Source: Escherichia coli (GTDB taxonomy: Bacteria > Pseudomonadota > Gammaproteobacteria > Enterobacterales > Enterobacteriaceae). Taken from it: a stretch of 62,585 nt of DNA. Location of the stretch: assembly GCF_002854065.1 (NCBI RefSeq), contig NZ_CP024148.1, one strand, 5' to 3'. Shown here one piece after another: positions 60,401 to 62,585 of the stretch (positions are counted from its first letter, which is position 1; each line of letters begins with the position of its first letter). A program made the position numbers.

Positions 60401-62585
60401 AAACAGCACGAACTTTATTGAAACACTTTTCAAAATATTCTTTCGGATATTTTGGGGGAAAAGTGATTTGTTTTTTCAAATACCAGGGCTGAGGCTGCTT
60501 TTTACGTGTTTTCTCTGCTACAGCATCTTTCTTCTGTACTTTCTTGTTTTCATTAACTGCTGATTTTTGTACTTCCTGCGGCTTTTCATTCACCACAGGA
60601 TTTTCTGGCATGACCAGAACGCGGCGTTTTTTGACCACAATCACGGGTGTTTTTTTGGGCTGCATACTCGCCTCAATAATTGCTGTCATATTGACTAATT
60701 ATACCATATTCACCAGTTAATATCCTGAAAATACATGGAAAAAGGGGGTATCCGTACAGAATACCCCCTTTGTAAAGGCGCTTAATGCCAGAACCACATC
60801 ATCCCCAAAAAGGCGGGCTTTCGCCCGCCTCCGGGTTGCTACTTACCGCCGGATTCGTAAGCCATGCTTGCCGTAACCTCCCTGTATCCGTCCTTCAGCC
60901 GGATTTCGCACAGGCGATTCCGGGTCAGGAGTGTGAATATTAACAACGTGCAGCACACGATTAATACGCACCAGATAAGGGCGTTTCCCGGTAGTTTCAT
61001 GGCCTTCTTCTCCTTGCGTAACGCGCGGTAAGAGGCTATCCTGATGTTGTTCAAGCATTGGGATCGCCTCGTGGGTTAATGAAAAATTAACTACGGGGCT
61101 TTCTTCTTTCTGCCGCACAACAAGATACAAACCACCTTTTCGCCATGAGGCAGAAAGCCTCAAGCGCCAACAACATTATATATCGACCAGAAACTTGAAA
61201 ATACATGGTATTGCGTAAAGGGCGGTAAAAGTCTATCCTGGTGTTGTTGAAGTATTGGGATCGCCTCGTGGGTTAATGAAAAATTAACTACGGGGCTTTC
61301 TTTTTTCTGCCAGACAACAGGATACAGTGCGCCTTATATCCCCGTCCTTCAGGGCGTGGAGGATGTCAAATATTGACCAGGAATTAAATTCCCAGCTTTC
61401 GGCGTGGACTATACAGTGTGTGATTCACCACGATGAATCCTTTGTTGATCCACTGTGTTACCTGCGCAGGTTGAACTCCGGTCAGCCTGGCGAACGATGC
61501 CTGATTCCCCCGATAGAACTTGTTGATGTATTCAATCAAAGGCATTTTTTAATTCTCCGAAACAACGCAAAATCATATAGTAATTTACTATATGATTTTT
61601 ATTTCGCAAGTGATTAACTCATCGGATTTCTTTGTAGTTAACGAAACGTTAAATTTAGTTTGTGCCTGGAATGGCACGCAAGAAGCACACTAGCATTATT
61701 ATTTTGATCAAAACGCTATTTCCCCCGTCATTGGGGGGCTTTCTTTTTTGATGCCGCGCCAGCGGCATGGAAGGCGGCACTCCGTTGTTACATATGATAC
61801 TGGAGTAAAACCGCCGAAGCCCGGCGTAAGCCGGTACTGATTGATAGGTTTCACCTTACCTATCCCCATCCTGCTAAGCCATACCCGCTTTCAGCCATGA
61901 AATAGCTTTTGTGCGCGGTCGGAGTGGTCCCGACAAGGGTTTACCCGCAGTCGGGGCGTATCTCCGCGTTAGCGGGCCGCCAGGACCGCTTACGAGCGTG
62001 TACTTGGTACTTCCAGCCAGAAGACTGACAGCCATGTAATTTCTTAGTTACAACATCCATTATTGAAAGCGATGTTGTTCCCGCCCTTCGGGCGGGGGCG
62101 GCGGCGCTTTTCAGTGATGGGTTGGGCGCTGTGGCTGAGTATTTGCAGCGTTTTTTTGTAAGAGGGTTGGAGGGGCTTTGTTTTTCATTAGGCAGAAGTC
62201 CATATGCCCGCCGCGAAGCGGTGGGAGGTACTTTTATATTCTGAGCGGCGCGGCGTTAGCCGCTGCAAGCGAAGGCATTTTTGTAATTATCCACAGTTGT
62301 TTCAAAGATAAATATTTTCCCTGCGGCGAAGCAACGCAGGGGATTAAAGAACAGGGGTTAAGAATATATTGCGGGTTTGATGTTCTATGTTTGCTGCTTT
62401 CTGAAGCTATTCCTTTGCGGGTTTTTGTGGATAACCGAAGGCGTTTTTACTCCGATACCCTATTGCGGCCATCAAAAAACTGTCAGAGCGGGACAAAATG
62501 AAAAACGGTCGTCAAATATGAGGAATTTCATGAAATGCAGGCAACACGAAAAGCCCCGAAGGGGCTGAAGAGAGTGCCGATTGTA

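Follow-up and report, generated by a model that had tools for sequence, protein, structure and literature searches.

A sok-containing remnant beside a hok/mok/sok locus in an mcr-1 IncI2 plasmid of Escherichia coli

The DNA analysed in this study is a stretch of 62,585 nucleotides from E. coli, which is called the window hereafter. It contains a hok/mok/sok locus (copy 1) and, upstream of it, a degenerate second stretch of sok and leader sequence (copy 2). The question raised by this locus is what the second stretch is and whether it does anything. According to the first-pass annotation, which was made from the sequence alone, copy 2 could act either as a second antisense RNA gene or as a decoy target for the Sok RNA. 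We consider it likely that the window contains one hok/mok/sok module of the working type and a decayed remnant of its tandem duplicate, and that this remnant has no selected function but is still transcribed.

Plasmid setting and copy 1

The window is an mcr-1 IncI2 plasmid. It contains a 541-aa ORF on the minus strand (44294 to 42669), the first 30 nt of which are identical to what we take to be the 5' end of mcr-1. A 701-bp region around hok/sok is a 100% match to many conjugative IncI2 plasmids of ~60 kb from E. coli, Shigella and Salmonella, and in these plasmids it is flanked by repA on one side and by a ProQ/FinO-family gene (pcnR) on the other side. pcnR is a copy-number regulator in the mcr-1 plasmid pHNSHP45, and hok/sok is given in the same study as one of three "putative" toxin-antitoxin modules of the IncI2 plasmid (PMC8053102). 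The features of copy 1 are as follows.

60839-61000, minus strand: hok ORF (Hok toxin, 52 aa), from the ORF list, with a match to Pfam PF01848 HOK_GEF of 58 bits
60843-61058, minus strand: mok frame (71 aa) with its ATG at 61058, overlapping hok, with a match to Pfam DUF5431 of 143 bits
60777-61168, minus strand: predicted hok mRNA (392 nt) that includes tac (61161-61168) and fbi (60777-60784), from folding, the ends being deduced
61175-61180, minus strand: putative -10 box of the copy 1 hok promoter, TATAAT, read from the sequence
60739-60768, minus strand: terminator-like hairpin and T-run located 3' of fbi, read from the sequence
61014-61042, plus strand: putative Sok1 promoter, consisting of -35 TTGCGT (61014-61019), a 17-bp spacer and -10 TATCCT (61037-61042), read from the sequence
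61049-61112, plus strand: Sok1 RNA, predicted from folding to be 64 nt long, with an 11-nt tail, a stem-loop and a U-tract

With these parts, copy 1 (60739-61180, minus strand) reads as a complete hok/mok/sok type I toxin-antitoxin locus. It agrees with the hok/sok family in every respect that can be tested at the sequence level, namely the Hok peptide, the mok frame, the leader model, the predicted tac/fbi pairing and a Sok gene with its promoter. The Hok-family toxin that had been placed at 60839-61000 is confirmed as a minus-strand ORF, the peptide of which scores far above the PF01848 cut-off of 22 bits and which is annotated as a Hok family toxin in the identical plasmids. The mok frame is annotated as such in pEG430-1, and its start is collinear with the R1-type mok start. 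The leader of copy 1 (60998-61169, minus strand) matches the Rfam family RF01794 'sok' over the full model length with a score of 98.4 bits, as compared with a gathering score of 59. RF01794 matches the hok-sense strand, and the Rfam match therefore represents the hok leader with the Sok target. The -10 box of the hok promoter is located 7 nt upstream of the likely +1 position and is kept in single-copy plasmids. In the minimum-energy fold of the model mRNA (61168 to 60777), nt 1-8 are predicted to pair with nt 385-392, which represents the tac/fbi pairing. The terminator-like hairpin consists of GGGGGTAT, a loop of 9 nt, ATACCCCC and TTTTT.

The sequence compared with copy 1 is the one that we take to be R1-type hok, and it is found verbatim in at least 2660 PLSDB plasmids. 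The leader had been said to match the R1 hok mRNA, and this likeness holds: the 24-nt 5' end, which includes tac, is identical in the two sequences. The two sequences are collinear, and the elements conserved between them include the SD (GAGG) and AUG of mok, the sok promoter boxes and the SD of hok. The hok/mok/sok locus (parB) of R1 and IncF plasmids consists of the same parts in the same order as copy 1, with Hok, an overlapping mok and a cis-antisense Sok of 64 nt. The Sok tail/target stretch is the most divergent part, so that cross-reaction with R1-type loci is not expected. The positions of the Sok promoter hexamers are kept in the R1-type sequence and across hok/sok subfamilies (123 metagenomic loci among the matches listed). 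The end-pairing of tac and fbi in R1 (PMC9841398) is also predicted for the mRNA of copy 1. Copy 1 is unlike R1 in that it resides in an IncI2 backbone, where it is flanked by an HTH gene and pcnR, and in that a further, sok-only remnant adjoins it.

Sok had been expected on the plus strand at about 61035-61113. The strand is correct, but the start is ~14 nt too early, so that the proposed interval takes in the -10 box, and the model is now 61049-61112. Sok1 is fully complementary to the hok leader of copy 1 (hok1), and its 11-nt tail is single-stranded in the predicted fold, ahead of a long stem-loop. R1 Sok is likewise 64 nt long and has an 11-nt 5' recognition tail (PMC1635323).

Anatomy and origin of copy 2

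The features of copy 2 and its borders are as follows. No strand is assigned to the first three.

61196-61210: apparent tandem-duplication junction, CCATGTATTTTCA joined to the hok promoter region, from a 13-nt repeat and the alignment of the units
61211-61326: copy 2, the remnant of a second hok/sok unit (sok gene and ~17 nt of leader), with 90.5% identity to 61014-61129
61327-61371: left-end remnant of an IS200/IS605-family element, which aligns with the end of intact tnpB elements
61211-61239, plus strand: putative Sok2 promoter, consisting of -35 TTGCGT (61211-61216), a 17-bp spacer with 4 substitutions and -10 TATCCT (61234-61239), the hexamers and spacing being the same as those of copy 1
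61246-61309, plus strand: predicted Sok2 RNA, the stem-loop of which is identical to that of Sok1

A segment of roughly 90 bp at 61222-61311, about 200 bp upstream, had been described as a repeat of the sok/leader sequence with about 90% identity. This repeat is real and slightly longer. The identity is 93.3% over that range, 105 of the 116 positions are identical when 61014-61129 is compared with 61211-61326, and a repeat search gives 125 nt (61014-61138 versus 61211-61335) at 88%. The repeat does not arise by chance, because it extends over 116 nt at 90% identity and the same arrangement is present in at least 339 PLSDB plasmids. The absence of a hok ORF from the upstream copy is likewise confirmed: none is present in the ORF list, the remnant stops at the hok SD, and the hok start nearest to copy 2 is that of copy 1, at an offset of 264. 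Copy 2 also lacks tac, the hok SD and fbi. It scores 23.7 bits against RF01794, which is below the gathering score, because only the middle third of the leader is left. Copy 2 thus fails the tests of the hok family, having neither Hok nor a leader above the threshold, and as judged from its sequence it is best filed as an orphan sok remnant, in which the promoter, tail, stem-loop and U-tract are intact and a cognate toxin is missing. It is not annotated in the plasmid records inspected, and a description of a second sok copy in IncI2 plasmids was not found in the literature.

When the two units are aligned in the hok sense, copy 2 corresponds to a copy 1 that lacks the hok SD and all that follows it in the unit. 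The junction of this deletion (...TTACGCAA followed directly by TACCATGTATTTTCA) abuts the sok -35 hexamer. A 13-nt exact repeat is shared by 61196-61210 and 60726-60738. Because CCATGTATTTTCA is normally located 3' of the hok terminator, the stretch between the copies is the junction of a tandem duplication, at which the region downstream of hok is joined to the region upstream of hok, including the TATAAT box of the hok promoter of copy 1. This junction is missing in single-copy plasmids. A 39-aa ORF that runs across it (61087-61206, minus strand) was judged to be spurious, as it lacks an SD and the corresponding ORF upstream of pcnR has only 8 codons.

The homology to the hok leader ends at 61326, and the following 45 bp (61327-61371) do not derive from hok. 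This stretch aligns with the ends of intact tnpB elements in E. albertii p2 and pRHB42-C20_3, with the ends of the elements next to tnpB in L005 and L008, and with phage 933W, and it matches the subterminal hairpin end of the intact tnpB-bearing element. The sequence is dispersed, being present in 4479 of 5426 complete E. coli genomes. The element is presumably IS609-like, a name that we assign on the assumption that it corresponds to the ydcM/ydcO neighbourhood of K-12. The possibility that 61327-61385 is a degenerate hok promoter and tac region was considered and rejected, since the comparison with 933W, E. albertii p2 and pRHB42-C20_3 identifies it as the remnant of an IS end.

Intermediate forms are found in other plasmids. 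In pRHB42-C20_3 and the metagenomic locus L084, copy 2 still has its complete 5' leader as far as the -10 box, and an intact IS with tnpB comes directly after it. The locus of E. albertii p2 has only one copy, with this IS inserted at the identical site, and p1081-CTXM and pBCE049-3 contain a single copy and no IS. The two-copy plasmids have ~197 extra bp, which are flanked by CTGGTC(A/G)ATAT repeats. The locus L111 is a single-copy form in which a promoter allele of the inter-copy type, P(b), is joined straight to the backbone. The locus L095 is a crossover product in which the side towards hok comes from copy 1 and the other side from copy 2 with the IS remnant, and its hok is therefore left without a promoter or 5' leader. 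The structures of L111 and L095 indicate that the repeats of copy 1 and copy 2 recombine with each other. Collapse to one copy is also seen repeatedly. Single-copy IncI2 plasmids are common, and copy 2 is dispensable.

The most economical history of these forms would consist of four steps (duplication, IS insertion, deletion of the second hok, and loss of the IS and the 5' leader). A unit of ~470 bp, extending from the hok promoter to just past the 3' end of hok, would have been duplicated head to tail. An IS200/IS605-family element would have been inserted into the upstream unit, and a deletion of ~275 bp in this unit, which ends exactly at the sok -35 box, would have taken the hok ORF and the 3' UTR. 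In the lineage of the window, the IS would have been lost later together with the hok promoter and ~50 nt at the start of the leader, with the 45-bp IS end staying behind. What is left is essentially a bare sok gene. The arrangement is an ordinary product of duplication and decay and not a new kind of system.

Sok2 and the possible roles of copy 2

Sok2 is identical to Sok1 over a run of 49 nt that starts at the end of the tail and extends through the stem-loop, and the two genes also share both promoter hexamers and the 17-bp spacing. They differ from each other at four positions in the spacer, one between the -10 box and the +1 position, two in the tail and one in the U-tract. The differences in the tail are G versus C at 61249 and T versus C at 61253, the two C bases of Sok1 being located at 61052 and 61056, and the difference in the U-tract is an improvement. 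Sok2 is predicted to fold as Sok1 does. Neither lineage of copy 2 has lost the hexamers, their spacing or the stem-loop. These features suggest that copy 2 is probably still transcribed as a 64-nt Sok-like RNA, and they are compatible with the earlier proposal of a second antisense RNA gene.

The 11-nt tail starts the pairing with hok mRNA. On the target of hok1, the Sok2 tail is predicted to form a G:G mismatch and a G:U wobble, and the computed energy of the tail duplex with hok1 mRNA is -9.7 kcal/mol for Sok2 as compared with -15.5 kcal/mol for Sok1. Because the two changes are located in the tail that initiates pairing, Sok2 would serve the adjoining hok as no more than a redundant antitoxin of reduced strength, and plausibly it does so. 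The change at 61253 is polymorphic: pSH262-1 has C at this position, which is the sole difference of pSH262-1 from the window.

Whether Sok2 is transcribed at all bears on the possibility that copy 2 is a fully silent relic, the promoter of which is unused and which gives no RNA. We regard this possibility as unlikely. The hexamers share only 7 of their 12 positions with the sigma-70 consensus, the sequence upstream of the -35 hexamer has been replaced by the deletion junction, and the generic scan for promoters and terminators gives no promoter anywhere and one doubtful terminator. However, the scan misses the Sok1 promoter as well, although the hexamers and spacing of the two promoters are identical. 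It also misses the hok terminator, because the loop of 9 nt exceeds the limit of 8 nt that the scan sets for hairpin loops. A scan that misses both the canonical Sok promoter and the hok terminator is uninformative for Sok2. In addition, R1-type Sok has a strong promoter with nearly identical boxes (PMC1635323), and the new sequence upstream of the Sok2 promoter is A/T-rich and is not expected to weaken it. A literature search for transcripts of IncI2 hok/sok gave nothing specific.

None of the substitutions in the sok gene of copy 2 falls within the two promoter hexamers or the stem-loop of 49 nt. This pattern, the categories of which were chosen after the data had been seen, could mean purifying selection on Sok2 and could equally mean gene conversion. 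If it means selection, copy 2 may be a selected second antitoxin, which either increases the dosage of Sok for hok1, for example upon entry into a new host, or acts as an anti-addiction RNA against the hok mRNA of rival, incompatible IncI2 plasmids with the other tail allele. The promoter hexamers and the terminator of Sok2 have stayed intact, in contrast to the spacer and flanks, which have drifted, and the two-copy form is frequent in PLSDB. Furthermore, the Sok2 tail, GUUGAAG(C/U)AUU, is suited better to the hok target of the G allele, which is found in many single-copy IncI2 plasmids, than to that of its own neighbour. The computed energy of the duplex with the G allele is -13.5 kcal/mol for Sok2 of the window and -15.5 kcal/mol for Sok2 of the pRHB42 type, as compared with -9.7 kcal/mol on the neighbour. 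Nevertheless, the tail allele is not bound to copy number, since the single-copy loci L066 and L078 carry the C allele, and copy 2 has been lost or has collapsed repeatedly. There is no sign of strong constraint either, as 61253 is polymorphic within one lineage and the Sok2 stem-loop of pAF23 contains an internal duplication of 47 bp. A selected second antitoxin is for these reasons quite improbable. It is still more doubtful, in our view, that Sok2 has been kept as an anti-addiction or dosage antitoxin that shields the host when the mcr-1 plasmid displaces an incompatible competitor.

A paired split of Sok specificity, in which the C allele of the tail would be present only in two-copy plasmids, was also considered. 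It fitted six two-copy and three single-copy PLSDB loci, and it was rejected because the metagenomic loci L066 and L078 are single-copy loci with the C allele and the outgroups carry C.

The second of the two roles proposed earlier, that of a decoy target, finds no support. In this role, a hok-sense transcript of copy 2 would titrate Sok and thereby tune the activation of hok1. The fragment does hold the whole region complementary to Sok, and the HTH gene (61545 to 61384) is transcribed in the same direction with no terminator detected before copy 2, so that read-through is conceivable. However, copy 2 no longer has a hok promoter, since the remnant of the IS end has taken the place of its -10 box, and a promoter-like site was not found on that strand by the generic scan, so that only read-through from the HTH gene could give a sense RNA. 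Without tac, such an RNA cannot form the refolded structure with which R1 hok mRNA binds Sok (PMC9841398), and titration of Sok would tend to be harmful. A decoy function of copy 2 is therefore highly improbable.

The decayed tandem duplicate that is still transcribed remains the reading that we prefer. Copy 2 would persist because the loss of a toxin with its antitoxin kept is harmless, and not on account of any demonstrated job.

Frequency, known relatives and significance

The junction of the two-copy form is present in at least 339 PLSDB plasmids, 291 of them with an identity of at least 99%, and among the complete E. coli genomes it is present in 161. In PLSDB, plasmids with two copies form the majority, and both end points of the deletions hug the sok gene, which are two observations that run against the preferred reading. 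The majority in PLSDB may reflect the epidemic spread or the sampling of mcr-1 plasmids. The GTDB representative genomes give only one match to the Sok core, and the frequency was taken from metagenome contigs instead. The IncI2-type loci among the metagenome matches listed (n = 12) comprise eight single-copy loci, three two-copy loci and one collapsed chimera. Of the 123 Sok cores among these matches, 113 are accompanied by a cognate hok, seven are located too near a contig end to be classed, and three are classed as orphans. Two of the orphans are copy 2 of IncI2 plasmids, and the third is L130, in which hok and sok are separated by a different IS. The same IS junction is present in L038, one of the seven loci with short flanks. 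Orphan sok genes thus recur, as a small minority among the metagenome matches listed.

Disruption of hok loci by IS elements is seen in relatives, in which an intact IS200/IS605 element is located at the hok promoter, and in L130 and L038, in which a different IS parts hok from sok. In contrast, the window keeps only the 45-bp end of an IS. The chromosomal hok loci of K-12 are reportedly inactivated by IS elements as well (Pedersen and Gerdes 1999).

Both sok genes without hok and tandem islets of hok have been described before. E. coli K-12 has sokX only, whereas most strains have hok and sokX (PMC12736100). Like copy 2, sokX is an antitoxin RNA gene left after the loss of the toxin gene. However, sokX is chromosomal and stands alone, whereas copy 2 is located 197 bp from an intact paralogous hok/sok locus and can recombine with it, as in L095. 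Ten percent of Hok genes are located in islets of 2-6 genes that arose by duplication (bioRxiv 10.1101/2025.08.07.668861), and zorO-orzO/zorP-orzP are a further example of duplicated type I loci (PMC3919570). These systems resemble the IncI2 unit in the local tandem duplication of a type I module. They differ from it in that the toxin ORF is kept in each unit, whereas copy 2 is reduced to the antitoxin gene. By analogy, copy 2 can be regarded as a counterpart of sokX and as the decayed end state of a tandem hok islet.

The main value of this analysis is for annotation and for evolutionary bookkeeping. Hundreds of sequenced mcr-1 IncI2 plasmids contain an unannotated and probably expressed Sok-like RNA gene beside hok/sok. 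Because copy 2 is reduced to the antitoxin gene, it goes uncounted in protein-based surveys of type I systems. The series of variants, which runs from a full leader with an intact IS to a bare sok gene, then to the collapse into a single copy and to a crossover by which hok loses its promoter, represents a natural example of the decay of a toxin-antitoxin duplicate in which the toxin goes first. It also indicates that recombination at the repeat that is left can inactivate the remaining toxin at a later time. If Sok2 did affect killing or the competition between plasmids, it would bear on the persistence of colistin-resistance plasmids, and an anti-addiction Sok2, if real, would aid the success of an epidemic mcr-1 lineage.

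Plasmid setting and neighbouring genes

Four features of the window are considered here.
42669-44294, (-): 541-aa ORF, the first 30 nt of which match the 5' end of mcr-1
60093-60689, (-): pcnR, encoding a ProQ/FinO-family RNA-binding protein (Pfam ProQ, 62 bits)
61384-61545, (-): HTH-like ORF of 53 aa, with a weak, sub-threshold YdaS-family match (17 bits)
61700-62585: intergenic region towards repA

The 541-aa ORF is presumably mcr-1, as judged from its first 30 nt. If this assignment is correct, the IncI2 plasmid of the window confers colistin resistance. No Rfam family is matched, even at E<=1, in the intergenic region towards repA, where the repR leader and an antisense RNA have been described for the mcr-1 plasmid pHNSHP45 (PMC8053102). 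PcnR controls the copy number of IncI2 plasmids (PMC8053102). The region upstream of pcnR (60700-60738; CCATGTATTTTCAGG...CTGGTGAATATGGTATAAT) is similar to the hok promoter region (CCATGTATTTTCAAG...CTGGTCGATATATAAT).

The HTH-like ORF reads towards copy 2, the sok/leader remnant that lacks hok, and a terminator is not detected between them by a generic scan with a loop limit of 8. A perfect 15-bp inverted repeat (AAAATCATATAGTAA/TTACTATATGATTTT) is located at 61569-61599, just upstream of this ORF, and may be its operator.

Alleles of hok and routes to orphan sok genes

The hok ORF (60839-61000) is present as two sharply distinct alleles, while the IncI2 flanks are otherwise identical. The hok sequence of the window differs at 23-24 of 159 nt from those of the IncI2 plasmids pHLJ179-141, p1081-CTXM and pRHB42-C20_3, and at only 6 of 159 nt from that of the IncF plasmid pHK08. 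The window allele looks like a recombination patch derived from an IncF-type hok.

The 32-45-bp IS200/IS605-type end, which is found at 61327-61371 beside copy 2 and at three compared loci (L005, L008 and L007), is scattered over E. coli chromosomes, being present in 4479 of 5426 E. coli genomes at up to 8 places per genome. It is also present in Stx phages; in 933W, hokW/sokW is approximately 550 bp away from it. E. albertii p2 and pRHB42-C20_3 were the two relatives examined, and in both the hok promoter holds intact tnpB elements at the same site.

In two metagenome contigs, L130 and L038, which belong to two different hok/sok subfamilies, another IS, ending ...AATTGCAATATGTGGTGGACCCATACA, separates the sok -35 box from the region of the hok start, and sok and the leader are left there without hok. 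This arrangement represents a second, independent path to orphan sok genes.

Rearrangements between and within the copies

Copy 2 of pAF23 contains a tandem duplication of 47 bp at the position equivalent to 61254-61303, which doubles the Sok2 stem-loop and terminator.

Comparison of the metagenome contig L095 with 61049-61371 of the window reveals that copy 1, the complete hok/mok/sok locus, has crossed over with copy 2 within the Sok stem-loop, which is identical in the two. In L095, the promoter and the first ~50 nt of the leader of the hok ORF are swapped for the IS-end remnant. This crossover product shows that the leftover repeat can inactivate the surviving toxin gene.
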